Assembly: GCA_030390025.1 (NCBI GenBank)
Contig: CM059425.1
Span: forward strand, 260,338,001-260,402,000
DNA: 64,000 nt
Reading direction: 5' to 3'
Source of the DNA: Squalus acanthias
Taxonomy: Eukaryota
A program made the translations under genes and the position numbers. Below are positions 153-54,680 of the stretch, piece by piece. Within the stretch, counting starts at the first letter, position 1; every line of letters begins with the position of its first letter. The notes beneath the pieces were generated by a model, which worked only from the letters and a program-made list of their open reading frames with translations, was not told the origin of the DNA and did no database searches.

Positions 153-224
153 CTGTCTCAGCTTGCTGTGACTCCGTAAAATTAACAACACTGTAAACAC
201 CATCACTTCCAAGTTCTTGTGGAT
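153..224 (-). CDS. Gene A tail exon T5 (recent duplicate of T2): DPQELGSDGVYSVVNFTESQQAET
   Basis: tgtgtctttgacag|AT...ACAG|gtaatt, 72 nt. Flank 147-905 is nearly identical to about 15593-16350. Confidence 0.75.
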
Positions 225-9200: not shown

Positions 9201-12200
9201 TTGGGACATCCTGAGGACGTGATAGGCGCTGTCGAAATGCAAGTCTTTCTTTCCATCGTAGGGATAGGTTCCTGTCTCTGTAGCCGAGGCTTGCCAACCC
9301 TCCAGCATTGTCCGGGAGTCTCCAGGAATGAGAAACTAATCTCCAGGACATCGCTGCAAGAAACTCAGGAGACCGATCACCGGGGCATTCAAAAACACTT
9401 CTTCAAAAAAATAATTCTTTGGAGGCTTTAGTTATAACAGTATCGGAGTATCGGAAACCATCGGTGCCAAGTCACCTGTTCCTCCCGAGCTCGCTACCCT
9501 CACCACACGTTACCTCTCAAATTACTCACATACTGCATCCCAAAATATCATTTTCTGTCAGAAATCCATCTAATTTGTATTTGAATGAATCAACACTAAC
9601 CACTTCCACCGTCTCCCGAGGGAACCTGTTCCATGGATTGGCCACTCGCTCACTGAAATATTGGCCTCGATTTTAAACCCCCCACGACAGGTGGGAGAGG
9701 GTCGGGGGCGGAGTCTAACACGTCGCGCACGGCAGCGGATATTGGTGCGTCCAAGTGTCCCGCCGCGGGGAGGCGGGTCACCTTCATTAACATATTTAAA
9801 TCCGGCTCTCACCGCAATTGGGAGCCCGATTTAAAACTCACAGCTGCGGCGTGGGGTTCCCGGGGTTGGGAAACCCGGCAGTGAAAGGGAGGCGGGATCT
9901 ACCGGCCCCACAAGGCAAGTGACTTTTACAGCACTGCTTGTGGGCCAGGAGGAGCAGGAGTGCTCCCCGCTCCCCCCGGCCCCACAAGGAAGCCTTTGGC
10001 CTCCCCCGACGATCGAGGGCACCTCCTCCTCCCTGCCGACCTCTCTCTCCCCCCCCAGTCCCAATGGCCTCTCTCTCTCTCCCCCCCCAGTCCCAATGGC
10101 CTCTCTCTCCCCCCCAGTCCCAATGGCCTCTCTCTCTCCCCCAGTCCCAATGGCCTCTCTCTCCCCCAGTCCCAATGGCCTCTCTCTCTCCCCCAGTCCC
10201 AATGGCCTCTCTCTCCCCCAGTCCCAATGGCCTCTCTCTCTCTCTCCCCCCCAGTCCAATGGCCTCTCTCCCCCCCAGTCCCAATGGCCTCTCTCCCCCC
10301 CCAGTCCCAATGGCCTCTCTCTCTCCCCCACAGTCCCAATGGCCTCTCTCCCCCCCAGTCCCAATGGCCTCTCTCTCTCCCCCACAGTCCCAATGGCCTC
10401 TCTCCCCCCCCAGTCCCAATGGCCTCTCTCTCTCTCTCCCCCAGTCCCAATGGCCTCTCTCCCCCCCCAGTCCCAATGGCCCTCTCTCCCCCCCCAGTCC
10501 CAATGGCCTCTCACTCTCTCTCTCCCCCCCAGTCCCAATGGCCTCTCTCTCTCTCCCCCCAGTGCCAATGGCCTCTCTCTCTCTCTCCCCCAGTCCCAAT
10601 GGCCTCTCTCTCTCTCTCTCCCACCCAGTCCCAATGGCCTCTCTCTCTCTCTCCCCCCCCCCCCCCCCCCCCCCCCCCCCAGTCCCAATGGCCTCTCTCT
10701 CTCTCTCTCTCCCAGCCCCTTTCTCTTTCCCTCGGTCTCGATCTCTCTGCTCGGAATCTGGGTTGGAAATAGAATGAAAAAATGAGAATGAGGAGCTGCC
10801 ATTAAATGCAGCAGGACCTCTGTCCCCGGCCTTGCCGGGTTCTTCAGCCGTGTTCAGCCTCCCCCCCACCCCATAAATATCGGGGCCATTGTTTCCGCAG
10901 ATTAGTTTTGTATTTACCCCCATTGAAGCTCAGGCCGTGTCCTCTGGGTCGACTGTTCTGGACACGGTGAAACAGCTCGTCACAGGTATCTACTTCCTTC
11001 AGAATGCTAAAATGAGGAATTGTATCACCCCTCAACCTTCTCTGTCCCAGTGAGAACTTGCCCCATTTACATCATCACTCCTCATAATCCAACCCCTCAT
11101 TCATTCCATGTACTAGGCTGTAATTGACCAACACTGAGTGATGGCACAATGTAAGAACGTTCAAGGGCCATTCTTGTTGTCTTACCCGTCTGTTGTGCTT
11201 GAGGTGGTTTGGGATTGTTGACAGTGCTATAGAGAACATCTTCTCCCTCCTGCGCATCTATCAAGACACAATCCATTATCTCCATAGCTGCGTCATAGAC
11301 AATAGAATTAGGAAACCAAATGCTCCGTTACTGACAATCTGTTCCATTGAACTGATGATTACATGACAGGCTAGATCCCAGTCAGGACAATCCCATTGTC
11401 TGATCAACCCGAAGGCCATTTAACACAAGAGCAACAAAATGTGCTCAGCAATGACCTTTTAAGACAAAGAGTCAGGATTTTGTGTTTTTAAAACAAACTT
11501 GGGAGATGGGGCAGAATTTCTCCGGGATTTGATCCCCGCAATTTCACCGGGATCGCTCCCGTCGGTGACCTCTGCCACTGACCCCCACCGGAGTGTGCAG
11601 GGTGAGTGGGAGGTCATGTGTGTTCCACATATCACCACTATGGGTAGCCCCGTACACTGCCAGTCTATAAAAGGCACGCTGTCATGCCAATTGTAGATAT
11701 GTGAAAGGTTTACTCTTTAATTCAAGGTAAGAATCATGTTTGGCTGCTAGCTTTTTGCTGCTTGCTCTGTATTCACCATTCCTTACCTGTCACTGCTTGG
11801 TGGGGTCTTAGACATTTAACAGTGCTGTAGACAGGGAGACTCTCAGACTCCTGTGGATCTGTAAAGGACACAGGCAGTTACTTCCTTCTTACATCCTCAT
11901 CGGCAAAACTTTGATTCAGTTTAATGGTATAATAATAATGAATTCAACAACAACTTGTATTTATATTGTGCCTTAACGTTCTTAGTTCTTTGAGGAGGTA
12001 ACGAGCAGGGTGGATAAGGGTTAAACAGTGGATGTGGTGTATTTGGATTTCCAGAAGGCATTCGATAAGGTGCCACATAAAAGGTTACTGCATAAGATAA
12101 GAGCTCACGGAATTGGGAGTAATATATTAGCATGGATAGAGAATTGGCTAACTAACAGAAAGCAGAGAGTCGGGATAAATGGGTCATTTTCCGGTTGGCA

Positions 12201-15200: not shown

Positions 15201-18200
15201 TCAAACTCACGTCTCCGGATCATTAGGCCTCTGGATTACTAGTCTAGTGACATAACCACTATGCTACCGTACCCGATTTATGGCTCCTAGTTCTTGTCTC
15301 TCCCACAAATGGAAACATCTCCTTTATCACGATCCTATCAAACCCTTTCACAATGTTCAAGTATCAGGTCACCACCCAGTCTTCTTTCTTCCAATGAAAA
15401 GAGCCCCAGCCTGTTCAATCTTTCCTGATGGGTAGAACCCCTCAGTTCTGGTATCATTCCAGCAAATCTTTTTTTGTGCTTCCGATTCCCGAGTCCAAAT
15501 TGTTTCTGTAACTTGTGAGCAACAGTGGTCCCAGCACCGCTCCTTAACCGCTGCGCTATTTGCTGTGTTGTAGTTGCTTGTGGAGTCGCCTCATTACCTG
15601 TCTCAGCTTGCTGTGACTCCCTAAAATTAACAACACTGTAAACACCACCACTTCCAAGTTCTTGTGGATCTGTCAAAGACACAAAAATGTAAGAAAATAT
15701 GGAACATGGATTTTTTTGACTGGAGTAAAATAGGTGAAAGGACCATCGTACATGACCCCATCAAGGCTGGAAAAATAGAGGAGAAAATGAGCTGAATCAC
15801 AAAGTAATGATTTGGGGATCGCCAAACTGAGCTTTTAAAAACTCTCGGAAAACTCTTAGCTTTTGAGTTTTGCGGCTTATCCGTGGCTCAGTTGGTAGCA
15901 CTCTCACCTCAATGTCTGAAGACCATGGGCTCAAGTCCCACTCCAGAGATTTGAGCACATAATCCAGACCGACATCCCCAGTGCAGTGCTGAGGGAGTGC
16001 TGCACTGTCGGAGGTGCCGTCTTTCGGATGAGACTTAAATTGAGGCCCCACCTGCTCTCTCAGGTGGACGTAACAGATCCCATGACCACGATATTGAAGA
16101 AGAGCAGGGGAGTTCTCCCAGGTGTCCTGGCCGATATACATTTCTCAAACCGAAAACAGATTATCTGGTCATTATCACATTGCTGTTTGTGGGACCTTGC
16201 TGTGCGCAAATTGGCTGCCACGTTTCCCACATTACAACAGTGACTCCACTTCAAAAGTCATTCATTGTATATGAAGCGTTTTGTGAAATCCTGAGGTTGT
16301 GAAAGGTGCGACAGAAATACAAGTTCTTTCTTTAAAAGCCTGTAGATTGGAGGACGGGTGGACTCGTGGAGGACGGGTGGACTCGGGTAGGACGGGTGGA
16401 CTCGGGGGGCTGGGGGGACGGGACGACTCGGGTAGGACGGGTGGACTCGGGTAGGACGGGTGGACTCGGGGGGGCTGGGGGGACGGGACGACTCGGGTAG
16501 GACGGGTGGACTCGGGTAGGACGGGTGGACTCGGGTAGGACGGGACGACTCGGGTAGGACGGGTGGACTCGGGGGGGACGGGTGGACTCGGTGGGGATGG
16601 GTCGACTCGGGGGGGACGGGTGGACTCGGTGGGGACGGGTCGACTTGGGGGGGGGACGACTCGGGGGGGGACGACTCGGGGGTGGGGGGGGACGGGTGGA
16701 CTCGGGGCGGGGGATGGGTGGACTTGGGGGGACGGGACGGGTGGACTTGGGGGGGGGGGGGGACGGGTGGACTCGGGGGGGGAGAGGGGGGGACGGGTGG
16801 ACTTGGGGGGGGACGACTCAGGGGGGGAGGGTGGGACGGGACGACTCAGGGGGGGGACGGGTGGACTCGGGGGGGGGACGGGGGGACGGGACGACTCGGG
16901 GGGGGATGACTCGGGGGGGGGGGGAATATGACTCGGGGGGGGGGGGACGACTCGGGGGGGACGGGACGACTTGGGTAGACAATAAGTTCCATATTTTTGT
17001 TGTTTAGGAAACGAACGGGATCGATTTCCATCCCTGTTTTCGGGTGGGAACAGGGCCGTAGACAGATCAAAATTGGAGTGCAGAACACAGCGCCCCATTT
17101 CAACCGTCGTTCCACCGGCCGCTATTTAGATTGGGGCCTTCAGGTAGGCTGTCGAGGCTCGTGCCCGAAACAGGTGGGAGCCTCATTATACAAAGTAAAT
17201 CGAGGGTCCTCTGATGTCTCGGAAACCTCGATGCACCTTTCAAGTAGCAATGGGTCAGGACATCGATCAGCCTAACGGTCTGAAAGGGACCGCCGGAGGC
17301 TGCTCCAAAACCAGGGCAGTTAGAGTTTTATATCAGCATTAATGTTCCTCCTGGCCCCACAAAGATCAGCCCACCCAATGCCCTGTCGCCCTGTCGCCCT
17401 CCCCCGGGATCGCCCCCTTCCCCCGCTCCCCTACCAGGTCCCCACTTGCTCTGCTCCGTGGAGGAGCCGCTCCATTTCCCGATTGGCCAGTTGCTCCGAT
17501 CGGGCGGGCAACTCCTCTCAAATATGCGAATCTGGCCCGACCATCAAAATGGTTCAGTCCTCCGACCGCTTTCATTGGGCGGGAGGGCAGCGGGCTCGCT
17601 CCGACTACCCCCTGCCCAATGAAAGGGCTCGCACCAAAGTCGGCCCCAATGGGTTAGAATGGGAGACCAATCTTAGTTCCAACACAGGGATGGTGAAGGG
17701 AGGGTGGGGGGGGGAAGAGGTTAGAGAATGATGGGCCGAGACCAGGAGGAGTGGGCCTGGTGGGACCACAGCGAGAGCGGAGCAGTTAAAAGCAACAGTC
17801 CCGAGCGGCAGGAGCCCGAGACCGGGAGGAGTGGGCCTGGTGGGACCGCAGCGAGAGCGGAGCAGTTAAAAGCAACAGTCCCGAGCGGCAGGAGCCCGAG
17901 ACCGGGAGGAGTGGGCCTGGTGGGACCGCAGCGAGAGCGGAGCAGTTAAAAGGAGCAGTCCCGAGCGACAGGAGCCCGAGACCGGGAGGAGTGGGCCTGG
18001 TGGGACCGCAGCGAGAGCGGAGCAGTTAAAAGCAACAGTCCCGAGCGGCAGGAGCCCGAGACCGGGAGGAGTGGGCCTGGTGGGACCGCAGCGAGAGCGG
18101 AGCAGTTAAAAGGAGCGGCAGCAACTCAACAGAGGCAGCTTTTGAAAAAGTGACGTCAGAGTAAAAAAAGTGACGTCGGCACAAGGGAAGGAGCTGATTG

Positions 18201-24200: not shown

Positions 24201-27200
24201 GTGAAGGGGTCGGCCATTTAGGACTGAGATGAGGAGAAATTTCTTCACTCAGGGGGTTGTGAATCTTTGGAATTTTCTGCCCCAGAGGGCTGTGAATGCT
24301 GAGTCTTTTATATATTCAAGGCTGAGATCAATAGATTTTGGGACTCTTGGGGAATCAAGGGATATGGGGATCGGGCGGGAAAGTGGAGTTGAGGTCGAAG
24401 ATCAGCCATGATCTTATTGAATGGCGGAGCAGGCTCGAGGGGCCATATGGCCTCCTCCTGCTCCTAATTCTTATGTTCTTGCGTATCAATTTGTTTAACT
24501 TGTGTGTCCTATCCTTGGGCACGAGAGGTGTTACAAGAGTCTCCCCAGATATGGGAGCAGTATTGAAAAATCTTGGATGGATTAGGCTTCACAAAGAGTG
24601 AAGAGTTGTCGAGGGGAAAAGAAGCATGGAGAAAGAATCCAACCCGCTGAGAGGCAACGTCAGTGATGGAGGGGTTGTAGGCATTCCATTTAATTTTACA
24701 GGAGATAATCAGGCCAAAATGGCATTAAATGAAGAAGGATGAAGGGTGGATCCATCAAAGACTGGAAGTAGTAGCAGATGGTGGAACTCGAGGGACAAAG
24801 GAGGGTATTTTCACCTTCACCACTTGGGCAGTAAACTGGTGAAGAGAATCACCCACCCGTTATAGAACCCGCTCAGACTGAGATCGATAGGCTTTTGTTG
24901 GGTAAGGGTACCAGGGGACAAGGAGTCAAGGCGGGTAAATGCTGAGGTACAGATCAGCCATGATCTGATCGAATAGTGGAACAGGCTCGAGGGGCTGAAT
25001 GGCCTTTTGAACACGGGTTTTAAGCTTAAGTGTGTATTTCAAAGAATGTTCTCAATGCAAAGCGGGAGTTGTGAGTGGATTTGTCTCATTACCTGTCTCT
25101 GCTTGCTGTGACACCGTATCATTAGCAACACTGTTAACAGGAACACCTCCAGGTTCTCGTGGATCTATCAAAGACACAGAAACATAAGAAAGTATTTCTG
25201 TAGAAATCAATCGAAATGATAATCAGGCGGGCGGGCTCTATAACGGGTGGGTGATCTGCTCCACCAGTTTACCGTCCAAGGAATACCCTCCACACTCCCC
25301 CCACCCTGAGTAGATCTAGCGATCCAGCTATTGTGCTGTGCGTGGAATTGCGACCGTGTTCCAGCCCGACAAACCTCCGAGATCTCTGTGCTCCTCCAAT
25401 TCTGACCTCTTGCGCGTTCCCGATTTCCATCGTTCCACCATTGGCGGCCGTTCCTTCAGCCGCCTGGGCCTGAAACTCTGGAATTCCCTCCCTAAACCTC
25501 TCCGCCTCTCTACCTCTCACTCCTCCTTTAAGCGGAGATGCCGGTGTTGGACTGGGGTGGACAAAAGTGAGAAGTCGCACAACACCAGGTTATAGACTTC
25601 ACCTGACGAAGGAGCAGCGCTCCGAAAGCTTGTGATTTCAAATAAAGCTGTTGGACTATAACCTGGTGTTGTGCGACTTCTCACATTTGTCCTCCTTTAA
25701 GACCCTCCTTAAAACCTACCTCTTTGATCAATCTTTCCTAATATCTCATTATGTGGCTCAGTGTCAAATATTGTTTGATAATCGCTCCTGTGAAGGGTCT
25801 TGGGATGTTTTACTACGTTAAAGGTGCTATATAAATACAAGTTGTTGTTGTTTTGTGCACTCGGAATGTGTGAGCTGAAGGGACCTGTAGAGGAGAATTA
25901 ACAGAAAAAGAGTTGGACAGGGTTTGGGTGATAAGTGGAAGAGAGGACTGATTTGGGGAAAGAACAAAGTGGGAAAGGTTCTTGGGTTGAAGGGACAAGA
26001 CTCTGAAGATGAGCCCTCATCTACCGCATGGAGCAATGTCTGGGAAACTAGATAGCCATGAACGTGACTGTGGTGGAAGACCTCATGCCCCAACAACCTG
26101 CGCCCTGTCCAATGAGGCGCCATGCCAGGACCTTTGGCTCATCTCTTTCCCCTTGACTCTCAGTGCTATGTATTGAGACTCTGCTGGCTGTAGTTTCTGC
26201 TGCTAGCTCTGCATTCTTCAGTCTTGCCCGCCTCTGCTAGGTGGGGCACTTGCCCAGTAACGGTGGGGCAGGGAGCAACACTTCCAGGGCTGGGTTCTAC
26301 TGCTCAGGGCGGAGGTCTGGTGGGACGGGAGTTCCGACCGCTCTCCCCCTCTCCGACCCGTTTCCTCAGGTCAGAGTTCGTTTGATACGCACGACAGGCT
26401 TTTAAAATATTAATTCTGAGGATATGGGCGACGCTGGCAAGGCCGGCATTGATTGCCCATCCCGACAAGGTGCTGATACATCTGATGGCCTGTGGCTGAT
26501 GGAATTCAATGTCGGGAAGTGTGAGGTCATCCACTGTGGACCTAAGAAAGATAGATCAGAGTATTTTATAAATCACACAAGAACTGCGGAGGAGCAGAGA
26601 GATTTGGGGTCCTGGGAAAGAAATCACTAAAAGCTGGTGGACAGGGACAAAAATTAACGAGAAAGGCCAATGGGATGTTGGCCTTTATCTGGAGGAGTCC
26701 GGATTACAAAGGGGTTACAGTTGTATAAAGCTCTGGTTAGACAACATCTGGAGTAACTGCGTCCAGTCCTGGGCACCGCACCTCAGGAAGAATATAGTGA
26801 CCTCGGAGGGGGAGCAGCTCAGATTTAACCAGAATGATACCAGGGCTACAAGGTTAAATTATGAGGACAGGTCACACAGACTCGGCTTGTATTCCCTTGA
26901 ATATGGAAGATTAAGAGGTGATCTAATTGAGGTGTTTAAGATGATTAAAGGAGTTGAAAGGGTAGATAGAGAGAAACTATTTCCTCTGGTGGGGGTAGTC
27001 CAGCATAAGGGGGGCATAACCTTAAAATTAGAGCCAGGCCGTTCAGGGGTGATGCCAGGAAGCACTTCTTTGCATAAAGGGCAGTGGAAATCTGGAACTC
27101 TCTCCCCCCAAAAAGCTGTTGAGGCTGGGGGGTCAATTGAAAACTTCAAAATTCAAGATTGATTGATTTTTGTTAGGCAAGTGTATTAAGGGTTAGGGAA

Positions 27201-30200
27201 CCAATATGGGTAGTTGGAGTTAAGATACAGATCAGCCATGATTGAATTGAATGGCGAAATAGTCTCGCGGGGCTGAAAGGCCTCCTCCAGTTCCTATGTT
27301 CTTCCTATGTAATCTAGAAGAAGCCCACAGTTCTAACATGATGTCCCACACCAGTAGAGCTTCTATTGTGACGCTTACCTCTCTTCAACCTCCAGATAGT
27401 AAAACCAATTAAAAGAAAGAAGATCATTAAAATGGCGGGCCCACTGTAGAGGGCGATGTTCAACTTGTCCTTGTCATCAGCGGGGAAGTGGATCTGACGG
27501 ACGTCACTCCCGTGTTCATTTACAGCCACACAGCTGTAGTTCCCTCTCAGCGTTGGGTTCAGAATCTCTCCCACAGTTTGATGTTTGTCCGGCACTCGTG
27601 TGACTGTCGTGCTACTGCTGTCCACGGGCAGTGCGCTGTTTTCAGGGTCGATCAATGCGATGTTTGCGGGTGGCTCCCCTTCAACCTTGCACACGATGGT
27701 GTCTCCAGTTATATTGTCGGTCACAACCGACAGCTCCAGGATGGTGGCTGGGGCTTGGGGAGGAAAGAGACAATGAGTTAACTCAATCTAATTAATCTTT
27801 ATTAAACGGTCCGTGGTGACAACGTCCATTACGTGGCACTGAGAAACACGTGAGCATGGAGAGGTGACACCCAACAGGAGATTGGATTGAAATATTCAGA
27901 GAGCAAGTGGACTCTGATTGGAAAGGGACATGAGTTTGATGTTAACGGAGGAGGCGGATGGAATTAGCCTGAGTGAGTGGATCTGAACAACACAGCGGCC
28001 AGGAAATTGGGCTGCCTAAATGCCCTCCTAAACTGTTACAGGCGTCTCTCAGGTCTCAGCTCCTCACTGGGAGCGAATTTGCTCTTGTGTTTGTTCAACG
28101 TGATTTTATCACCTTCACCATATCATTGAGGTAGATGTTTCCTTACCAACAACCTGTAGTCTCATCACATCCTGAGTCACGTTTTCTCTTCGCTCATTCT
28201 CGATGTGCACGTGACAGAAGTAGTCGCTGGTGTCGTTCAGCCCCAGGTCCCTCATCCTTATGGAGGCGTCTCCTTGGGTTGTGTTTCCGATCAGCTCATA
28301 TCGATCTCCTTGATTTACACTAACTGTGTCAGTATAGTGAGAACCAGCGGCGAGGGAACGAGTGTGATTAAAAACAGTGGACTCTTGGCATGGATTCTCC
28401 TTCATCCAGAGGACAGTGATGGAGCTCGGATACCGGCCAGGGGGACTGAAGGTGCAGGGCAGTGTGGCAGAATCTCCCTTCTTCCCAGTCACTGGCCGGT
28501 TATTGTTCTTATCAGCTGAGGTAGAGAAGGGTTTTAAAGAATGGACATTATTCATTAGCACAGAGCATTAAACACAGTTTATACAACATATATGTCCCCT
28601 GTGCACTGTGAGGTTTGCTCTGACGGCAGTGCAGGCAGACAACAGCAGCTTACATTTAAACAGCGACTTTAAGACAGTAAAACATTTCCTTCCTATTCAC
28701 TCTCTCAAAACCCTTCATAATTTTGACAACCTCTACTAATTCTCCCCATAACATTCTCTGCTCTGAGGAGAACAATCTCAGTTTCTCCAGTTTCTCCACA
28801 CAACAGAAGTGCCTCATCACTGGAACCATTCTAGTAAATCTCCTCTGCACCCTCTCCAAGGCCTTGACATCCTTCCTAAAGAGTCCGGAATCGGACACAA
28901 CACTCCAGCTAGGGCCTAACCTGTATTTTATAAAGGTTTAGCATAACTTCCTTGCTTTTGTACTCTAAACAGCTCTTCACAATCATCAACCTCACTCATT
29001 AATAATTCTCTTTATCCTACTCCAGTCCCACACCATTCTGATTGACTCTTAACTGCTCTCTGAAGTGGCTCAGTTGTATCAGCGCCTTCTCAGGGCAACG
29101 AGGGAAGGGCAATAAATGTCGGCCTTGGCAGCAACGCCCACATCACCAGAACGAGTAAAACAAATACACACGGTTGTGATTGGATTATTTTACAGCACAA
29201 CCTTATTTCTAGTTTGAATTATTCCTTACTTCTTATCTCGAGAACTCCATGGTTGAGTTGAAATTTTCCTTCTTTATCGTCCTTGAAATCCACACGACAA
29301 ATGTACGTTTTCTTTGTGTCCGCTTTGTTCAGCTGTTTGATGATGATAGAAGCGTCGTTCTCCCTCGGGTTTCCCAACACTCGGTAGCGCTCGTCTACAT
29401 TCAGGTGGATCTGATTCTTAAACCCATTGCTCTGCGAGTTTAGCGACGGATAATTTGTGTAATTATAAACCACTCCTTTCCGAGTTCTGTTCCAGGTGAC
29501 GGTGATGTTGCCTTTATATCCAGGGTGAGGGTGAGTGAACTTGCAGAATAGAACAGTAGGCTTCCCTTCCCTAGCCATCACCCTATCTGGGGTCTCCATG
29601 CTCCAGTTATTCACACTGTGACCTGTGAGGACACACAGATGTCATGTTAACACTTGACTGAGCCCAAGAGTCAGACACTCCATGGAGGAAGCACGACACA
29701 CCCTGTACTTTCTGACATTCTAATGTCTATCTGAAACTGTGCTGAATTATGGCCAGTTGTGTGCTGTGTGTCCACACTCAATAGGAAGTGGGTTGGAGTG
29801 CCTCCAGCCCATTGCACAGAGACTAAAGAAATAGAACCGGAGAGGCCTGCAGCACCGGAGGTCGTTCCACACCCCCTGTCTAAGCCTGCTCTTTCCTGGA
29901 GCCATCTTATCCCATCAGAGTATTCTGCCTTTAATACAAAAGAAAAGAAAGACTTGCATTTATATAGCATCTTTCACGACCTCAGCCTGTCCCAAAGCCC
30001 TTTACAACCAATGAGGGGTCTGGACAGAGTAGACAGAGAGACACTGTTCCAGTTGGCGGAAGGGTTGAGAACCAGAGGACACAGATTTAAAGTGATTGGC
30101 AAAAGAACCAAAGGCGACGAAAGAAAAAACTATTTTACGCAGCGAGCGGTTAAGATGGGGAATGCACTGCCTGAAAGGGTGGTGGAGGCAGACTCAATCA

Positions 30201-30677
30201 CATCTTTCAAAAGGGAGTTGGATAATTATCTGAAGGAAAACATTTTGCAGGTCTACGGGGAAAGGGCGGGGGAGTGGGACTCGATCAGAGCCAGCACGGG
30301 CTCGACGGGCCGAAAGGCCTTCTTCCGTGCTGTAACCATTCTATGATTCTATGATTCGATGATTCTCTGATTCTGAGTATTTATTGAAGTGGAGTCCCTG
30401 TTGTAATGTAGGAAACACGGCAGCCAATTTGTGCACAGCAAGCTCCCACAAACAGCAATGAAATAAATGGCCATGTCACCAGTTTTAGGTGTTGGTTGAG
30501 GGATAAATATCGTGCCTGTGCCAACTCTTTGAAATACCTCTCTAATTATTTCCACTCCCCTGCTCTTTCCCCATAGCCCAGAAGAAAGAAAGAAAATGGG
30601 TTCCTGCCTCCTCTTGGTGAATACGTACGTTCTGCTGAGATGGCCAGGGCGAGTGCACAAACCAAAATGCACAGCAT
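153..30677 (-). CDS. siglec15-like: Gene A: Siglec-15-like receptor (leader-V-V-C2-TM plus multi-tyrosine-motif tail), putative inhibitory form, 3'-partial. Exons 30629-30677, 29230-29622, 28147-28515, 27379-27753, 25093-25164, 15598-15669, 11787-11858, 11186-11257, 153-224
   Basis: All nine exons have GT donors and the eight internal ones have AG acceptors. They join in phase 1 with no stops (49, 393, 369, 375 and 5x72 nt). V1 motifs WSM..P..V, CKFTHPH, RYRVLGNPRENDAS, YICRVDF and HGVL resemble Siglec-15 as I recall it. No stop codon is reached in the window. Confidence 0.85.
436..888 (+). mobile_element. tRNA-derived SINE (SacSINE1/DeuSINE-like)
   Basis: A-box gtggctcagttgg, B-box-like ctcaagtcc, L2-like tail. 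Family name is from recall. Confidence 0.75.
910..8757. repeat. G-rich ~20-bp minisatellite (GACTCGGGGGGGACGGGTG/GAC variants), about 7.8 kb
   Basis: Visible periodicity. Explains the GGTGRLGGD and PPESSRPP ORFs in multiple frames. Confidence 0.97.
8757..8985 (+). mobile_element. L2-like LINE 3' fragment
   Basis: ctctggaattccctccctaaacctctc...aaaaccta, ending in (gtt)n. Similar pieces at 13990-14240(-), 25365-25850(+) and 33200-33296/44902-45465(-). Confidence 0.65.
9663..10887. mobile_element. Non-autonomous PIF/Harbinger-type DNA transposon inserted in a minus-strand CR1 fragment
   Basis: Imperfect TIRs ggcctcgatttta / taaatatcggggcc, 3-bp TSD ATT. Removing it restores CR1 KTNLRKQYFSERVANPWN. 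Confidence 0.75.
10038..10715. repeat. Minisatellite (CCCCAGTCCCAATGGCCTCTCTCT)n inside the MITE
   Basis: Visible tandem unit with variable CT and C tracts. Confidence 0.95.
11186..11257 (-). CDS. Gene A tail exon T4: DAQEGEDVLYSTVNNPKPPQAQQT (canonical ITIM VLYSTV)
   Basis: tgtgtcttgatag|AT...ACGG|gtaaga, 72 nt. Matches [ILVS]xYxx[ILV]. Confidence 0.82.
11787..11858 (-). CDS. Gene A tail exon T3: DPQESESLPVYSTVKCLRPHQAVT (YxxV)
   Basis: tgtgtcctttacag|AT...ACAG|gtaagg, 72 nt. Not in the ORF track. Confidence 0.8.
12000..13990 (+). mobile_element. 5'-truncated CR1 LINE, RT region, interrupted by a MITE
   Basis: [28 protein letters not shown]; in-frame stops; CR1 3' tail. Confidence 0.93.
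12357..13117. mobile_element. GC-rich Harbinger-type MITE, family 1
   Basis: TIR GGGGGAAAAATT / AATTTTTACCCC, TSD AAA. Near-identical to 22208-22980. Confidence 0.85.
14340..14800 (+). mobile_element. Degenerate CR1 3' fragment
   Basis: VQSWAPHLRKDILAL and RRLRSDLI. Similar fragments at 24170-24480, 26485-27313, 28680-28970(-) and 30010-30370. Confidence 0.8.
14870..15275 (-). mobile_element. tRNA-derived SINE
   Basis: Minus-strand head ggtagcatagtgg...gtttgaatccc. Tail gggcaataaatgctggcct is shared with 60-130. Confidence 0.65.
15598..15669 (-). CDS. Gene A tail exon T2: DPQELGSGGVYSVVNFRESQQAET (YxxV)
   Basis: tgtgtctttgacag|AT...ACAG|gtaatg, 72 nt. Confidence 0.8.
15881..16333 (+). mobile_element. 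Duplicate of the SINE at 436-888
   Basis: Near-identical sequence at offset about 15445. Confidence 0.75.
16350..16975. repeat. Short, more degenerate copy of the same G-rich minisatellite
   Basis: Same unit at the paralogous position after the duplicated SINE. Confidence 0.93.
17730..23140 (+). mobile_element. Full-length decayed CR1 LINE: 5' 80-bp tandem monomers (17735-18117), ORF1 from 18384 (Zn-finger plus SGNH/GDS esterase), ORF2 APE-RT with stops and frameshifts
   Basis: Cys-rich N-terminus and VGDSIVRG in ORF1; ITETW, GDFN and FADD in ORF2; (tatgactc) tail. Confidence 0.93.
22208..22980. mobile_element. Harbinger-type MITE, family 1, second copy
   Basis: Same TIRs, TSD TCA, within CR1. 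Confidence 0.85.
23141..24033. mobile_element. Harbinger-type MITE, family 2
   Basis: TIR GGGGGAGAAATTCAG / CTGAATTTTTCCCCC, TSD TAT, inserted in a CR1 microsatellite tail. Confidence 0.85.
25093..25164 (-). CDS. Gene A tail exon T1: DPREPGGVPVNSVANDTVSQQAET (Asn at the Tyr position)
   Basis: tgtgtctttgatag|AT...ACAG|gtaatg, 72 nt, homologous to the other tail exons. Confidence 0.75.
25533..25689 (+). mobile_element. Penelope-like mini-insertion with inverted terminal arrangement
   Basis: 12-bp duplication tcctcctttaag (25521-25532 and 25690-25701). Perfect 29-bp inverted repeat at 25567-25595 and 25656-25684. Contains a hammerhead motif. Confidence 0.75.
25598..25636 (+). ncRNA. Minimal type-I hammerhead ribozyme motif (Penelope-type)
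   Basis: tcac-CTGACGA-a-ggagc-agc-gctcc-GAAA-gc-TT-gtga: core boxes, stem II, stem I tcac/gtga and palindromic AAGCTT stem III. Confidence 0.65.
27379..27753 (-). CDS. Gene A exon 4: C2-set Ig domain plus uncharged TM (IALYSGPAILMIFFLLIGFTIW-RLKR)
   Basis: Acceptor tcctccccaag, donor AGAG|gtaagc, 375 nt. Motifs CKVEGEPP and GNYSCVAVNEHG. Confidence 0.9.
28147..28515 (-). CDS. Gene A exon 3: second V-set Ig domain (His in place of the Siglec Arg)
   Basis: Acceptor ctacctcag, donor gtaagg, 369 nt. Motifs GDSATLPCTF, ITVLW, RYELIGN..QGDASI, DTSDYFCHV. Confidence 0.92.
29230..29622 (-). CDS. Gene A exon 2: Siglec-type V-set Ig domain 1 with essential Arg (CRVDF)
   Basis: Acceptor ctcacag, donor gtaagg, 393 nt. 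B-strand Cys, core Trp, YxC followed by Arg (codon 29294-29296). Confidence 0.92.
30629..30677 (-). CDS. Gene A exon 1: signal peptide MLCILVCALALAISAE
   Basis: ATG at 30677, 16 mostly hydrophobic codons plus 1 nt, donor GTACGT. Splices in frame to exon 2 (C+GT=Arg). Not in the ORF track. Confidence 0.85.
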
Positions 30678-45900: not shown

Positions 45901-46779
45901 ATCAACACCCTTTCGTGTAGGTTGCAGTAATATGTAGTGGAATGTTTATAGTATGGCACTACTATAAACATCCCAAGGCTTTACGTCAATCTTGAACATT
46001 GGCTATTGCTAGGGTGATCTGTAATTCTTTCTCTCTCTCTTTCTCTTTCCAATGATGTCAATCACGTTTTTTGCTCTCCATTGTAAGCTTTTTATTTCGA
46101 CTGGCATTAAATTGACAGCAAGACCAAATCTTTTGAAACAATTTTGAATAAGCTTATTAAACACTCACACTCATGCACATCAAAACACTAGCCTACTGAT
46201 ATCCTATGGACTCTGCTCGATGACAACAGGTAAGGTAATGGGTTAGATTTAAACAGACTAGTACTTCCCTGAGTCAAGCAATGCACGCGGCCTTTTTCCT
46301 TGGTGAGTTTCGATGGTGAGTTTCGATGGGTTTTCGATGCTGTCTCTGTGGGGGTTATCCTGTTATGCAGGTTTCCTTTGTTAAGTTTCGCGCCGTTGCC
46401 TTAAGCTCCGCTCCCAGGGAGATCCATACCCATCAAATTAATCTTTATTACATTCATCTTATATTAATAGTCTCGAGTCCATCACACATAGAAAACATAT
46501 ATTTTTATTCTTACACCATTGAATGAGCAAAACACAAACACTTTTCAGAAGCTGAATTTGCCGAGTTCCCTGTACCAACAAAACCCTCCATTGTCTCAAT
46601 CGTCAATGATGAAACTTTCCACCGATCCTCCGCCAATGTTATGGCAGGAGATGAATTCCCATCACTCTCTCCTTGATCATTTGATGCTGTATTACGAGGG
46701 GCTCTCAAACACAGAAGTCTCGATTGGAATTTCAATTGAGCACTAAGAATGAGAAATGCCTTATCTTTTCTTTCAGAAG

Positions 46780-47261
46780 TTACTTTACCTGTTCCGCATC
46801 ATCAGAACCAGCAGCTGAAAACATTACTATCTGTGAAGATGCCACAGTATTACCATGATGTCCCACGCCAGTAGAGCTTCCATTGTGAATCTTCAACCTC
46901 CAGATAGTCAAAGCAATTGAAAGAAAGAAGATAATTGAAATGGAGGTTCGAATGTAGAGGTCGATGTTCAACTTGTCCTTGTCATCAGCGGGGAAGTGGA
47001 TCTGACGGATGTCACTCCCGTGTTCATTTACAGCCACACAGCTGTAGTTTCCTCTCAGCGTTGGGTTAAGAATCTCTCCCACAGTTTGATGTTTGTCTGG
47101 CACTCGTGTGACTGTCGTGCTACTGCTGTCCACGGGCAGTGCGCTGTTTTCAGGGTCGATCCATGTGATGTTTGCGGGTGGCTCCCCTTCAACCTTGCAC
47201 ACGATGGTGTCTCCAGTTATATTGTCGGTCACAACCGATAGATCCAGGGTGGTGGCTGGGG
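46780..47261 (-). CDS. Gene B exon 4: C2-set domain, TM LYIRTSISIIFFLSIALTIW, Tyr-free tail
   Basis: Same acceptor as gene A. Arg codon at 46948-46950. 3' end uncertain because of possible cryptic donors near 46853 and 46788. Confidence 0.82.
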
Positions 47262-50200
47262 CTTGGGGAGGAAAGAGACAATGAGTTAACTCAATCTAAT
47301 TAATCTTTATTAAATGGGCCGTGGTGACAACGGCCATTACGTGGCACTGAGAAACACGTGAGCATGGAGAGGTGACACCCAACAGGAGATTGGATTGAAA
47401 TATTCAGAGAGCAAGTGGACTGGCTCCTGATTGTAAAGGGAAATGAGTTTGATGTAAACGGAGGAGGCGGATGGAATTAGCCTGAGTGAGTGGATCTGAA
47501 CAACACAGCGGCCTGGAAATTGGGCTGCCTAAATGCCCTCCTAAACTGTTACAGGCGTCTCTCAGGTCTCAGCTCCTCACTGGGAGCAAATTTGCTCTTG
47601 TGTTTGTTCAACGTGATTTTATCACCTTCACCATTGTAGGGGGTGATGGTTTGTGTCAGCTTCACCTCTGACTTCTGAGCGGTTTGAATCGCTCCCACTC
47701 CCTTGGTTCTAGACCTTGGACTTATTTGGGGGTTGTGATAAAAAGTGCAGCAGACAACTGAGTTTGATGCAAGAACTTTGATCTTTATTTAAGAAAGTAA
47801 AACACAACACAAACACTCTTAACACTCTAAAAGTGGGGAACACTTCGGTACAAGCGAGGGAAATAACATAAGGAGAATACTTCACCCCTCCCAATCCCAC
47901 TTCACTGGCTAGGTTGGACTCCAGAGGACCAGGGATGATACTCACCAGAATCCTTGACAGTTGGGTTAGTTGGCGGTTTTGGGGTTCACTCTATATGTCG
48001 GTTGGTGTCTGCTGTACCCCGTACGCGGTAGACGACTTCAACTGTGTATCTGGTCAGTCTTCGCGAGTCCGCTGATGCGGTAGGGTGCGTATTGGATCTA
48101 TCAGGTGAGTACCCACTTTTCTTTGGTTTAGAAGTAGGGTTTAGAGGTTTTTAAGGGAAAATCTTACCCAGGGGTAAATCAGGAGTAGATTGTAGAGTGG
48201 AAACTTTGTGGATCTTCGGGTTTTCTTCGAGTTGGTTTTCTTTGGTCGCGGTGGCCCAAATATTGGTACTTGGTGTTCGGTTGGTTGTTTCGTGAGGGCC
48301 TTGTTGCCGCGAGGTGTCCGATGGTCACTGAGGCGGTCGTTCTGGTTTCTTCACGTGTCGGCCTACTTTGTTGGATGGTCTGGCCTTCGAGCTGTCGACC
48401 TCCTGGCTGGACATGGAACGCTGAACGGTGGTGTTGTAGGACTGTGTTGCGGAGAATGCCTCTGTGGATGTCTTCTTGTTCTTCCTTCCTCTTCTTCTTT
48501 TTCAGGTTGAGAACGGGCCTTCAATTATACCCATTTAAGCTCCCTTATCTGCGCGCCAAATCAGGTCCCGGTCTTTGTTAGATTTTGGCGGGCTCGTTAA
48601 CGGTAACTGGTTTGTTAAGGTGTGAAGTGGTTCCGGGATGGCCCCATCCTGTCGATTTGCCACTTAATCAGAGATGATTGTCCTCATGTTTTGGGTTTCT
48701 TGACTGGGCCTAGGATTTCTATAGAGTAGGCCGAAGTAATCTGTTTTATGCATGTTTTAATGGGCTCTGTAACTTGGGGTGGAGACTGTTTTTCCTTGGG
48801 TTTATTGTAAGGATGTTAATGTCTGACAGGGGCCGATTTACACTCCCAGCGAGGTCATGCGGTTCCCCAGACAGTTCCCAATAGCTCCAATACCCAAACT
48901 GTTTTTACAGAGGTTGAGCCCACCTCCCTTTACAGCCTTTTCTCCCTTACAAGTCCAGACATGTCTTTTAAAATACCAAATCTTGGGTTTTGCTCTAAAA
49001 CGTCCTTCGGTTAAGCCCAATGCATTTCACCACCCTGTAATAGTTAGAAAAGAGTCCAAAGTCTTTTTCCTTAGGGTTTGTCTTCGAGTTTTGGGGGATC
49101 TGTGAATTTTGAGAATCTTACACCATATCATTGACATAGATGTTTCCTTACCGACAAGCTGTAGTCTCATCACATCCTGAATCACGTTTTCCCCTTGTTC
49201 ATTCTCGATGTGTACGTGACAGAAGTAGTCGCTGGTGTCGTTCAGCCCCAGGTCCCTCATCCTTATGGAGGCGTCTCCTTGGGTTGGGTTTCCGATCAGC
49301 TCATATCGATCTCCTTGATTTACACTAACTGTGTCAGTATAGTGAGAACCAGCGGCGAGGGAACGAGTGTGATTAAAAACAGTGGACTCTTGGCATGGAT
49401 TCTCCTTCATCCAGAGGACAGTGATGTTGTTCAGATACCGGCCAGGGGGACTGAAGGTGCAGGGCAGTGTGGCAGAATCTCTCTTCATCCCAGTCACTGG
49501 CCGGGTATTGTTCTCATCAGCTGAGGTAGAGAAGAGTTTTAAAGAATGGACATTATTCATTAGCACAGAGCATTAAACACAGTTTATACAACAAATATGT
49601 CCCCTGTGCACTGTGAGGTTTGCTCTGACGGCAGTGCAGGCAGACAACAGCAGCTTCCATTTAAACAGCGACTTTAACACAGTAAAACATTTCCTTCCTA
49701 TTCACTCTCTCAAAACCCTTCATAATTTTGACAACCTCTACTAATTCTCCCCATAACATTCTCTGCTCTGAGGAGAACAATCTCAGTTTCTCCAGTTTCT
49801 CCACACAACAGAAGTGCCTCATCACTGGAACCATTCTAGTAAATCTCCTCTGCACCCTCTCCAAGGCCTTGACATCCTTCCTAAAGAGTCCGGAATCGGA
49901 CACAACACTCCAGCTAGGGCCTAACCTGTATTTTATAAAGGTTTAGCATAACTTCCTTGCTTTTGTACTCTTAACAGCTCTTCACAATCATCAACCTCAC
50001 TCATTAATAATTCTCTTTATCCTACTCCAGTCCCACACCATCCTGATTGACTCTTAACTGCTCTCTGAAGTGGCTCAGTTGTATCAGCGCCTTCTCAGGG
50101 CAACGAGGGAAGGGCAATAAATGTCGGCCTTGGCAGCAACGCCCACATCACCAGAACGAGTAAAACAAATACACACGGTTGTGATTGGATTATTTTACAG

Positions 50201-52426
50201 CACAATCTTATTTCTAGTTTGAATTGTTGCTTACCAGTTATCTCGAGAACTCCATGCTCGAGTTCAAATATTCCTCCCTTTACGTCCTTGAAATCCACAC
50301 GACAAATGTACATCTTGTCTGTATCCCCTTTCCTCAGCTGTTTGATGATGATAGAAGCGTCGTTCTCCCTCGGGTTTCCCATCACTCGGTAGCGCTCGTC
50401 TACATTCAGGTGGATCTGATTCTTAAACCCATTGCTCTGCGAGTTTAGCGACGGATAATTTGTGTAATTATAAACCACTCCTTTCCGAGTTCTGTTCCAG
50501 GTGACGGTGATGTTGCCTTTATATCCAGGGTGAGGGTGAGTGAACTTGCAGAACAGAACAGTAGGCTTCCCTTCCCTAGCCGTCACCCTATCTGGGGTCT
50601 CCATGCTCCAGTTATTCACACTGAGACCTGTGAGGAAACACAGATGTCATGTTAACACTTGACTGAGCGCAACAGTCAGACACTCCATGGGGGAACCACG
50701 ACACACCCTGTACTTTCTGACATTCTAATGTCTATCTGAAACTGTGCTGAATTATGGCCAGTTGTGTGCTGTGTGTCCACACTCAATAGGAAGTGGGTTG
50801 GAGTGCCTCCAGCCCACTGCACAGAGACTAAAGAAATAGAACCGGAGAGGCCTGCAGCACCGGAGGTCGTTCCACACCCCCTGTCTAAGCCTGCTCTTTC
50901 CTGGAGCCATCTTATCCCATCAGAGTATTCTGCCTTTAATACCAGATAACAGGAACTTGCATTTCTGCAGTGTCTTTCACAGCCTCAGCACATCCCAAAA
51001 ACTATTTTACGCAGCGAGCGGTTAAGATGGGGAATGCACTGCCTGAAAGGGTGGTGGAGGCAGACTCAATCACATCTTTCAAAAGGGAGTTGGATCAGTA
51101 TTTGAAGGGAAAAAAATTGGCAGGTCTATGGGGAAAGGGCGGGGGAGTGGGACTGGATCAGAGCCAGCACGGGCTCGACGGGCTGAAAGGCCTTCTTCCG
51201 AGCTGCAACCATTCTATGACCCTATGGGGGAAAAATTCAGTATCGCCCCGTTTGCGGCGTAATTATCGGCTGGGCGCAAAGATTAGCGTCTGGCGCTAAT
51301 TATCACCACCGACTGCAAACTTGATTTTTATCGCCCCTGCAGGTGATTGGAGCGCGAAATCAGGCGCTTCACACATGTCTTAAGGCACAAAGGCCGAGGA
51401 GCGAGGCGCTAACTCAGAGCGCTGGCGAAGCTCATGTGATGTCAGTCAGCAATGGAACACACACACAATGGCCCCGGCCAGTTCTTAAAGGGGAGGGTTG
51501 ATCTTGCTCTCCATCCACACCCTGCTCATTGCAGCCTTGAATCTCAGCCTGGAGAGACCTGTACATCAAATCTGCTGGAAAGAACAATGGAGAGGACCAG
51601 GGAAAGAGCTCAGAGTGCAACCCCCCACAGTCTCTTCTAAATCGATACAAGGAAGGGCAAATAAAAATGAACCTGCAAAGTGCTGCTCAGTACCCAAAAC
51701 TCCTTCACACAGCATTGAATCTCTCCAGAAGTCTCTGTCTCTCTCTCTCAGAATGCATGGTTCAAAAATGTCACCAACAAAAAACAGCAGGAAGTGGTCG
51801 CCTTTAAATAGCGCTCCCCCAGTCCCTGCCTGACTGCAAAACGCTCCCCTCAACCTGTCGTTACTAGTGGCAGGCGGTAAGGCAGGGGGCACTACTCAAT
51901 ATCTGCTCCGGGGTGCTACCGGGGCGTTGCGCACTCGACTGACGTCACGATCTGCCGGTGCAGGAGATCGTGGCGGCAGTGTTTAGCGCCGCCGCAAAAT
52001 GTCTAGTTAATTTCGCGCGTCCGGGCGCTAGTTGCTTTGCGCCTCATTAGCGCCCTCTTAAGGCGCTAACTGGAGGCGCCCCCAACTGAATTTTTCCCCT
52101 ATGATTCTATGATTCTCTGATTCTAAGTATTTTTGAAGTGGAGTCCCTGTTGTAATGTAGGAAACGCGGCAGCCAATTTATGCACAGCAAGCTCCCACAA
52201 ACAGCAATGAAATAAATGGCCATGTCACCAGTTTTAGGTGTTGGTTGAGGGATAAATATCGTGCCTGTGCCAACTCTTTGAAATACCTCTCTAATTATTA
52301 CCACTCCCCTGCTCTTTCCCCATAGCCCAGAAGAAACAAAGAAAATGGGTTCCTGCCTCCTCTTGGGGAATACATACGTTCTGCCGAGATGGCCAGGGTG
52401 AGTGCACAAACCAAAATGCACAGCAT
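46780..52426 (-). CDS. siglec15-like: Gene B: Siglec-15-like receptor (leader-V-V-C2-TM with Arg, short tail), putative activating paralog. Exons 52378-52426, 50235-50627, 49152-49520, 46780-47261
   Basis: Exons 1-3 match gene A in size (49, 393, 369 nt), phase and splice sites, and there are no stops. Exon 4 reads through the deleted donor to TAA at 46780-46782. Confidence 0.85.
47635..49122 (-). mobile_element. Solo LTR (about 1.49 kb) in gene B intron 3
   Basis: TG...CA ends, 4-bp TSD CCAT, empty site in gene A near 28118. AATAAA on the minus strand at 47784-47789. Confidence 0.88.
49152..49520 (-). CDS. Gene B exon 3: V-set domain 2
   Basis: ctacctcag|...|gtaagg, 369 nt. Confidence 0.92.
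50235..50627 (-). CDS. Gene B exon 2: V-set domain 1 with essential Arg
   Basis: ctcacag|...|gtaagc, 393 nt, YICRVDF retained. Confidence 0.92.
51226..52099. mobile_element. Harbinger-type MITE, family 2, in gene B intron 1
   Basis: TIRs and TSD TAT. Absent from the paralogous gene A site near 30345. Confidence 0.85.
52378..52426 (-). CDS. Gene B exon 1: signal peptide MLCILVCALTLAISAE
   Basis: ATG at 52426, donor GTATGT, paralog of 30629-30677. Confidence 0.85.
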
Positions 52427-53193
52427 TCTCTTCACTCCTTCAGCGCCCAGATCTCTCTGACAGCCGACCACAGACTGTGGAACTGCGACGGTTCCTCGCT
52501 GTTTCTTGTTACTTCCTTCTTGAATCTGGGGGTAACGAAGAAAAAAAAATACTTGTGATATTTACCAGCCAGCTTCAGATGAGGAAGTCTCTTTTGCTCC
52601 CTCCCCAGTCAGCTCAGTGTCTGCACAGTGCCCCCATGTCTGGGAGCAACTGGCCTGCGCAGAAGCCTTGAAGTCAGACATAAGTTCTTCAGCACCTGCC
52701 ATACCACCCCCTGTAGACGTCTGCAACTTGAAACAACTGTGGAAGGCACCAAACACTTGTAGAATTGCAGCGACAGTCAGAAGGAATCATCCAACCACTG
52801 ACCTGTAGGTAGTTGATGATCCTTTGAATCGCGCTGGTGGGGGGTCCTTCCTGCTGCTTAAAGCGCGTTCAGCTGTGCGAGCTTAATAGAGGGCGTTGGC
52901 TCGAGGGTGGAGCTTCAGAACGGCAGCGCTGACGTCAGTATGGTCTGTCTGCTCTGCATACTTCCGGCGGACCTTAGCTGCGCACGGGCTGACGCCTTCA
53001 CCAAGTTGGCCTCCGGCGTCATTCACGGCAGAAGTGTGCGCGCCTGCAGGAGACGCCATTGTGGTCCCCGAACGGCCCCCATAGCGCCCAAACCACGGGA
53101 GCTACTGAGCCCAATTTCGTGCCCCATGTCTTTACATTTAGTGTTGCAACTGGGCTAAATAGAAGGAAGGAGTTAATTGTTTCTTGGAAAACC

Positions 53194-54680
53194 TGTAAGA
53201 TTCTCAAAATTCACAGATTCCCCTAAACTCTAAGGAAAACGCTGAGGAAAAAGACTTTGGACTCTTTTCTAACTATTACAGGGTAGTGAAATGCATTGGG
53301 CTTAACCGAAGGACGTTTTAGAGCAAAACCCAAGATTTGGTAATTTAAAAGACATGTCTGGACTTGTAAGGGAGAAAAGGCTGTAAAGGGAGGTGGGCTC
53401 AACCTCTGTAAAAACAGTTTGAGTATTGGAGCTAATGGGAACTGTCTGGGGAACCGCATGACCTCGCTGGGAGTGTAAATCGGCCCCTGTCAGACATTAA
53501 CATCCTTACAATAAACCCAAGGAAAAACAGTCTCCACCCCAAGTTACAGAGCCCATTAAAACATGCATAAAACAGATTACTTCGGCTTACTCTATAGAAA
53601 TCCTAGGCCCAGTCAAGAAACCCAAAACATGAGGACAATCATCTCTGATTAAGTGGCAAATCGACAGGATGGGGCCATCCCGGAACCACGTCACACCTTA
53701 ACAAACAAGTTACCGTTAACGAGCCCGCCAAAATCTAACAAAGACCGGGATCTGATTTGGCACGCAGATAAGGGAGCTTCAATGGGTATAATTGAAGGCC
53801 CGTTCTCAACCTGAAAAAGAAGAAGAGGAAGGAAGAACAAGAAGACATCCACGGAGGCATTCTCCGCAACACAGTCCTACAACACCACCGTTCAGCGTTC
53901 CGTGTCCAGCCAGGAGGTCGACAGCTCGAAGGCCAGACCATCCAACAAAGTAGGCTGACACGAGAAGAACCCAGAACGACCGCCTCAGTGACCATCGGAC
54001 ACCTCGCGGCAACAAGGCCCTCAAGAAACAATCAACCAAACACCAAGTACCAGTATTCGGGCCACCGCGACCAAAGAAAACCAACTCGAAGAAAACCCGA
54101 ACAACCGCGAAGTTTCCACTCTACAATCTACTCCTGACTTATCCCTGGGTAAGATTTTCCCTTAAAAAACTCTAAACCCTACTTCTAAACTAAAGAAAGT
54201 GGGTACTCACCTGATAAATCTAATACGCACCTACTGCATCAGCGGACTCACGAAGACTGACCAGATACGCAGTTGAAGTCCTCTATCGCGCACGGGGTAC
54301 AGCAGACACCAACCGACATAGAGAGTGAACCCCAAAACCGCGAACTAACCTAACCTGTCAAGGATTCTGGTGAGTATCATCCCTGGTCCTCTGGAGTCCA
54401 AACTAGCCAGTGAAGTGGGATTGGGAGGGGTGAAGTATTCTCCTAATGTTATTTCCCTCGCTTGTACCGAAGTGTTCCCCACTTTTAGAGTGTTAAGAGT
54501 GTTTGTGTTGTGTTTTACTTTCTTAAATAAAGATCAAAGTTCTTGCATCAAACTCAGTTGTCTGCTGCACTTTTTATCACAACCTCCAAATAAGTCCAAG
54601 GTTTAGAACCAAGGGGGTGGGAGCGATTCGAACCGCTCAGAAGTCAGAGGTGAAGCTGACACAAACCACCACCCACTACA
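53194..54680 (+). mobile_element. Solo LTR of the same family, opposite orientation, upstream of gene B
   Basis: TG...CA ends, imperfect TSD AACC/ACCC, AATAAA at 54526, empty site in gene A near 31443. Confidence 0.87.

Follow-up and report, generated by a model that had tools for sequence, protein, structure and literature searches.

Tandem Siglec-15-like genes in Squalus acanthias: a receptor with an ITIM-type tail and a short-tailed copy whose transmembrane arginine may recruit an activating adaptor

Among KIR and Ly49 receptors, inhibitory forms have given rise again and again to activating ones, in some cases by no more than 5-7 nucleotide changes (Abi-Rached and Parham 2005, PMC2213150, sections available), and together with the paired mammalian Siglecs they establish that inhibitory receptors can become activating by few changes. 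Known activating Siglecs signal through DAP12, according to excerpts of PMC6288428, PMC13358205 and PMC7226832, and the last of these describes fish genomes as lacking CD33-related inhibitory Siglecs. Receptors that pair with FcR-gamma through an arginine near the outer end of the transmembrane segment (TM) have an NxxR motif in common, along with further conserved features (PMC2413239 and PMC6557307, in part). The arginines of NKp30 and NKp46 pair with CD3-zeta or FcR-gamma (PMC6514059, in part), which makes CD3-zeta an alternative adaptor for the gene called B below. A 2014 survey of the old assemblies reports finding no FcR-gamma in shark genomes (excerpt of PMC4016189). The accessible portions of PMC10529500, PMC6795676 and one supplement of PMC3964593 held nothing useful on adaptors or Siglecs; other supplements may list adaptors. 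In the open-licence literature we came across no publication that deals with Siglec-15 paralogues of sharks or rays, no account of a three-class elasmobranch Siglec-15 cluster or of a Siglec with an outer-edge TM arginine, and no published description of the batoid arginine models XP_051876576 and XP_078286866.

The window analyzed here is a stretch of 64,000 nucleotides from Squalus acanthias. It contains two Siglec-15-like genes, tandem duplicates on the minus strand surrounded by LINE/SINE-like repeats, with B (52426->46780) upstream of A (30677->153); gene A continues past the window end (beyond position 153). Each gene has a leader, two V-type Ig exons and a single exon that encodes the C2 domain, stalk and TM (Table 1). 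All splice sites are canonical and the frames are open in both genes, and the five-part ORF of B is intact. Domain names are based on a PDB search and on the precomputed domains of database relatives. The best PDB match of A's V1 domain is human Siglec-15 (7zoz, E 2.7e-19), followed by CD33 (1e-5), and the nearest database proteins to A's C2-TM exon are those of the sharks Heterodontus (80%) and Heptranchias (77%). The F-strand arginine essential for sialic acid is present in A and is retained in B. No Lys-type Siglec-15 gene was found in the window. A 1.49-kb element occurs in two inverted copies that are 96% identical, one in the third intron of B (47634-49122) and one just upstream of B (53194-54681), and is absent from A.

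Table 1. Positions of gene parts and signals in the window, with the basis or salient content of each.
Feature	Position	Strand	Remark
Gene B leader exon	52378..52426	-	ATG, phase-1 donor; open frame into V1
Gene B V-set domain 1, Siglec-15-like	50235..50627	-	Essential sialic-acid Arg codon 50301-50299
Gene B second V-like Ig exon	49152..49520	-	Spliced to C2 exon in related organisms' contigs
Gene B C2 + stalk + TM + read-through tail, one exon	46780..47261	-	Stop TAA 46782-46780
Gene B TM region, 22 codons	46900..46965	-	Asp codon 46962-46960, Arg codon 46950-46948
Gene B junction without the 9 nt that contain A's splice donor	46888..46893	-	A/B alignment
Gene B 36-residue Tyr-free tail	46783..46890	-	Homologous to sawfish P0023 tail
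Weak cryptic donor in B, phase 1	46848..46853	-	Score 5.6 on a donor matrix
Strong-looking cryptic donor in B, phase 0	46783..46788	-	Score 8.4; overlaps last two codons
Candidate poly(A) signal, first AATAAA 3' of B stop	46504..46509	-	Sequence; second AATAAA at 46449-46444
Gene A leader exon	30629..30677	-	Open frame
Gene A V-set domain 1	29230..29622	-	Essential Arg codon 29296-29294; PDB 7zoz match
Gene A second V-like Ig exon	28147..28515	-	Open frame
Gene A C2 + TM exon	27379..27753	-	Donor GTAAGC starts at 27378
Gene A uncharged TM	27457-27392	-	Gly codon 27442-27440
Gene A cytoplasmic exon 1	25093..25164	-	72 nt, no Tyr; matches Heptranchias and Heterodontus tails
Gene A cytoplasmic exon 2	15598..15669	-	YSVV motif
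Gene A cytoplasmic exon 3	11787..11858	-	YSTV motif
Gene A cytoplasmic exon 4	11186..11257	-	VLYSTV, full ITIM consensus
Gene A cytoplasmic exon 5	153..224	-	Recent copy of exon 2

A sequence-only reading of this DNA had proposed that an inhibitory gene A gave rise to an activating gene B. The tyrosine-motif tail expected of A is present: five 72-nt phase-1 exons lie in the window, four of them with a YSxV-type motif (one full ITIM consensus and three ITIM-like). The tail of A is thus a repeat of such exons, mostly with one Tyr motif apiece, and they match the tails of the Heptranchias and Heterodontus proteins. The segment 148-1569 is a recent copy of 15593-16975, and the number of motifs in A is therefore still rising by exon duplication. 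Isoforms of the Heptranchias protein vary by entire 24-residue units. A long, G-rich, degenerate satellite of about 19 bp occupies cytoplasmic introns of A (904-8760 and 16349-16978) and belongs to the duplicated exon unit. In the C strand of its C2 domain A has Ala-Leu at codons 303-304 (~27652-27657, minus strand), where B and nearly all relatives have Thr-Trp; the missing conserved Trp may make the C2 domain of A less stable.

The two genes differ conspicuously in the membrane segment, as had been noted: 10 of 22 TM residues differ, including Gly->Arg (GGG->CGA, 46950-46948), and the neighboring C2 domain and stalk are nearly unchanged (5/99 residues, 9/297 nt). The 22 codons hold 11 nucleotide differences, 10 nonsynonymous and one synonymous. 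Over the ectodomain 32/369 residues differ, 13/131 of them in V1. The clustering in the TM exceeds chance relative to C2 (Fisher p=1.4e-4), and a 22-codon window with 10 differences anywhere would have p=0.002 if the 42 differences in 394 codons were evenly scattered. Four non-coding blocks diverge by only 1.3-2.4%, against 11 in 66 nt in the TM (Poisson p<1e-6). The TM is not the sole hot spot: the E-F-G block of V1 has 18 nucleotide differences in 34 codons (pS 0.19), and measured against this background the TM excess is gone (p=0.5). In that block, which surrounds the sialic-acid arginine (29230-29330 in A, 50235-50335 in B), 10/34 residues differ, and ligand specificity may, to judge from these residues, differ within the pair. 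A Lys-type gene as the source of the V1 hot spot in B was ruled out by eye, the F-G strands of Lys types being unlike those of B.

The proposed direction of change, from an A-like state to B, is upheld at about 8 of the 10 differing TM sites, where the A-like state is ancestral. At eight sites B is unlike both shark comparison sequences; two others look derived in A, since at -1 from the arginine B matches all five comparison sequences and at +5 it matches Heterodontus. Among A, B and Heterodontus the TM branch is longest in B (0.52 vs 0.09-0.11, or 0.12-0.13 vs 0.06-0.09 with a shorter alignment). The TMs of A and B show little synonymous divergence (1 in 15.2 sites, upper bound 0.37), which favors a recent origin of the TM of B and a parallel gain of its arginine; alternatively, a short TM tract may have been spared from conversion. 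For positive selection on the TM, raised in the same reading as a possibility, the comparisons are mixed: exon divergence exceeds intron divergence, but dN/dS within the TM does not depart significantly from neutral (p=0.24). Selection on the TM changes is suggested by the former comparison.

The account that we put forward, at somewhat less than an even chance, is that B is an intact copy of A with a Tyr-free tail and a fast-changed membrane helix, and that the arginine at the outer edge of this helix probably serves to recruit an FcR-gamma/CD3-zeta type of ITAM adaptor, which would make B the activating partner of A. The arginine lies inside the best 19- and 20-residue hydrophobic windows, which begin three residues before it, and inside the predicted helix, but at the outer edge, and a 17-residue window on the insertion scale begins after it (position weighting approximate). 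AlphaFold models of the A and B exons each contain one long helix and are silent on membrane depth; in B the helix spans residues 93-126, includes the arginine and is followed by a disordered tail. These predictions would put the arginine of B in the outer helix turn or at the membrane boundary. Sixteen uncharged residues separate it from the cytoplasmic basic stop and an Asp lies four residues before it, and the Asp and Arg together may merely mark the membrane boundary, leaving the 16 uncharged residues as the segment within it. A PDB search with the TM and tail of B returned chance matches only (five, at E 0.11-2.1). The FcR-gamma pairing to which the sequence-only reading pointed is weakened by the LxxR of B, which departs from the NxxR motif, and by the 2014 survey that reports no shark FcR-gamma.

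The position of the arginine at the edge, 16 residues from the inner boundary, is also what is expected if B is a non-signaling decoy or competitor that binds ligand like A and has no motif, its Arg and Asp setting the outer boundary of a shorter helix. This would agree with the TM of B being the least hydrophobic of the eight scored, with its LxxR in place of NxxR (the Asn replaced by Leu), with the changed TM residues not being clustered on one helix face (p=0.27-0.90), and with the presence of an outer-edge arginine in other ray members. A decoy would, however, leave unexplained why an arginine at the same position and a short tail occur together in two ray families and in this shark, and concentrated nonsynonymous change is unnecessary for making one. 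We regard it as unlikely, though as the most serious competitor of the adaptor-recruiting account.

The relatives used for comparison are 42 chondrichthyan proteins collected by protein searches and scored by TM, with distant Ig matches excluded; all are automatic gene models, and two have no TM. In eighteen of the 42, from sharks and rays, the TM has the canonical Lys at mid-membrane and the tail is very short. In another six an arginine precedes the aligned TM end by exactly 16 residues, the spacing found in B: Pristis (sawfish) P0023 and Rhinoraja (skate) P0041, P0168, P0171, P0173 and P0174. An arginine at this position is therefore not confined to B. In five of these models the frame runs on past the TM end, with the three codons absent from B still in place. 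P0173 is modeled with splicing at the TM donor, and the tail modeled for P0168 is long, doubtful and contains Tyr. Other relatives are uncharged at this site, with Trp in Heterodontus P0002 and Rhinoraja P0035. In three ray proteins (the first unit of P0021, P0047 and P0175) an arginine lies two positions further out, and the two Hemitrygon proteins with this arrangement have an A-type first tail segment. In the Rhinoraja skate the arginine form has expanded: a single contig encodes at least five such models and one Trp variant. The sialic-acid arginine is replaced by Leu in 10/12 Lys-type V1 domains scored (P0005, P0006, P0008, P0010, P0011, P0013, P0043, P0176, P0177 and P0180) and is retained in Mustelus P0179 and in P0036; among seven V1 domains of the other types it is retained in four, two differ and one was not parsed.

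A tree of 29 C2 domains groups sequences by lineage, regardless of whether the TM is of the Lys, Arg or uncharged type (the uncharged and Lys proteins of Heterodontus, for example, group at 100/96), and in a TM tree all 13 Lys types fall together (99/100). Ectodomains thus evolve in concert over stable TM classes, and on the evidence of these sequences arginine with a short tail is a third TM class of the family, either regained in parallel or ancient. If ancient, the Arg/short-tail gene would be a third paralogue older than the split of sharks and rays, overwritten by conversion with A-type sequence while selection spared the arginine; such a paralogue could signal too. Concerted evolution in the C2 tree is what this would produce, and the tails of B and sawfish P0023 align to the same C-terminal three residues (13/32 identical, 0/5000 shuffles), with indels of 9, 9 and 3 nt. 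Under the AU test both placements of B stand (Arg clade p=0.16-0.23). The best TM tree nevertheless puts B outside the batoid Arg group. With the Arg column excluded, 16 of 25 TM columns agree between B and A and 17 between B and Heterodontus, against only 8-9 between B and batoid Arg types. The low synonymous divergence between A and B speaks against great age as well, no other shark model among the 42 has an arginine at the position seen in B, and the likeness of the tails may reflect common intron ancestry, being seen also in the Arg-less catshark P0026 and at the start of A's intron. This alternative therefore seems distinctly improbable.

The junction in B had been attributed to the loss of a splice donor. 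The strings quoted for it are exact on the minus strand, that of A occurring once (27365-27385; 0 matches in 100 shuffles) and that of B at 46882-46893, and in the A/B alignment the 9-nt loss covers the GT donor, with one G/T difference beside the gap. The exon of B (47261-46780) is one open frame to the TAA and encodes 36 residues after the Lys, none of them Tyr, as claimed. That the 9-nt loss created this tail is contradicted by the rays, in which homologous read-through tails keep those three codons, so that the deletion was not the creator of the tail of B. In the A-type relatives (Heterodontus, Heptranchias and Pristis) a separate tail segment directly follows the basic stop, and the donor is thus ancestral.

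Contigs of related organisms, about 95-97% alike and not the window's own, bear on how B is spliced. Seven sets from two organisms, their RNA status guessed, each hold 10-30% of the window words; four of the seven were compared with 45400-52500. Among the matches listed, contigs of X1 and X2 join V2 to C2 over the predicted intron. Contig 17 of X4 (1107 nt, depth 19.8) contains V2 and then 47261-46634, with no break at the TM end, at either cryptic donor or at the stop, and the unique part of the intron that it skips has no cover in any of the four sets. This single informative spliced contig, from a related organism, agrees with the expectation of read-through and not with use of a cryptic donor at 46853 or 46788. 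The contigs of X4 and X1 are longer than B by 18 letters; by subtraction between contigs of different sets, nine of these lie in 46777-46872 and nine in 46873-46982, the interval of the A/B indel, and we infer from this that read-through already occurs in the relatives with the 9 nt still present. Among the matches listed, the TM zone has 7-11 mismatches, and the flanks differ at 2-5%. One contig stops at 46486, just behind AATAAA 46509-46504, although contigs cannot show RNA ends.

Were B instead spliced from 46788, or from the weak site at 46853, to a downstream exon, the predicted tail would not be the true C-terminus. The donor at 46788 scores like real ones (8.4, within the 4.9-11.5 of 12 real donors), and the C-terminal tripeptide common to B and the sawfish could be conserved donor sequence. 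Yet, among the matches listed, at least three contigs in three sets run unspliced over 46788 (X1 record 3, X4 record 17, X6 record 24), and between B and A's leader there is no tail-like exon: no Tyr-motif exon was found there, and the tails of eight relatives match only exons of A and B's own tail. Splicing of this kind is very improbable. That B is a decaying duplicate heading to a pseudogene is the least credible reading of all, for although pN is near pS over V1 and V2, Leu->Ser changes weaken the TM and an LTR-like insert sits in intron 3, its ORF and all its splice sites are intact, exons have diverged more than introns, and B retains the conserved C2 Trp lost in A.

In the adaptor-recruiting account, an A-type gene would have been duplicated recently, or its copy homogenized or kept A-like by conversion. 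The copy would read past the TM donor into an open stretch, homologous in sharks and rays, and a short Tyr-free tail would end the product, with the mRNA of B probably ending near AATAAA 46509. The TM would then have changed fast, gaining Asp(-4), Arg(0) and several small polar residues, presumably under selection. Read-through would have come first, the in-frame 9-nt deletion later removing the donor for good, and this shark lineage and the batoids would each have acquired the arginine, in parallel. B would bind sialylated ligands like A and would give an ITAM signal if its arginine pairs with an adaptor Asp.

Elasmobranchs appear, from the sequences compared, to have built an inhibitory/activating set from the Siglec-15 locus, with three membrane-anchor classes on concertedly evolving ectodomains. 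A bolder proposal, which we consider doubtful, is that an inhibitory Siglec-15-like receptor was converted, at the same codon but separately in sharks and in rays, into an activating form that uses FcR-gamma or CD3-zeta and not DAP12. The reason would be a loss of the sialic-acid arginine from the Lys/DAP12 Siglec-15, as in 10/12 of the Lys-type V1 domains scored, which would leave the Arg-TM form as the activator that senses sialic acid. Signaling by the Arg form would make it a Siglec coupled through an outer arginine outside the NxxR pattern and a clean parallel receptor switch at one codon; if B does not signal, it would be an ordinary short-tailed duplicate. With only 11 TM nucleotides between them, A and B offer a simple system for finding which changes make an adaptor interface.

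Among described systems, Siglec-15 itself (human 7zoz; elasmobranch Lys-TM models such as XP_067885297) resembles B in its V1 domain, essential arginine, short tail and basic TM residue. It differs in having a mid-membrane Lys for DAP12/DAP10 (PMC7226832, in part), which B lacks; in B an outer-edge arginine sits on a TM that descends from the uncharged type, and there is one more V-like domain. The batoid models XP_051876576 (Pristis) and XP_078286866 with its paralogues (Rhinoraja) share with B the family, the position of the arginine and the read-through tail, but they retain the three donor codons, and their stalk is shorter. All are products of automatic annotation, and one is misnamed. 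The NxxR receptors (LILRA, GPVI, Fc-alpha-RI, NKp46, OSCAR and Xenopus XFL) have an arginine near the N-terminal end of the TM, where that of B is predicted to lie at the very edge, and XFL resembles B further in encoding TM and short tail in one exon (PMC2413239, sections available). Unlike B they have Asn where B has Leu, and B lacks the other features given in the available parts of PMC6557307 and any sign of homology.

The activating KIR and Ly49 receptors parallel B in a switch of few nucleotides, the gain of a charged TM residue and the loss of ITIMs; they belong to another family and use another adaptor, and their function is proven, whereas B is known from sequence. The basic TM residue of Siglec-14 is an arginine. 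In Siglecs 5/14 and 11/16, gene conversion maintains near-identical ectodomains on an ITIM-tailed form and on a form with a short tail and charged TM (PMC6288428 and PMC13358205, in part). Those pairs are CD33-related, mammalian and signal through DAP12, whereas A and B are Siglec-15-related, with C2 and TM in one exon and a read-through tail in B. A and B are nonetheless like such paired receptors in being linked, with near-identical ectodomains, A having an ITIM-type tail and an uncharged TM and B a short motif-free tail and a basic TM residue.
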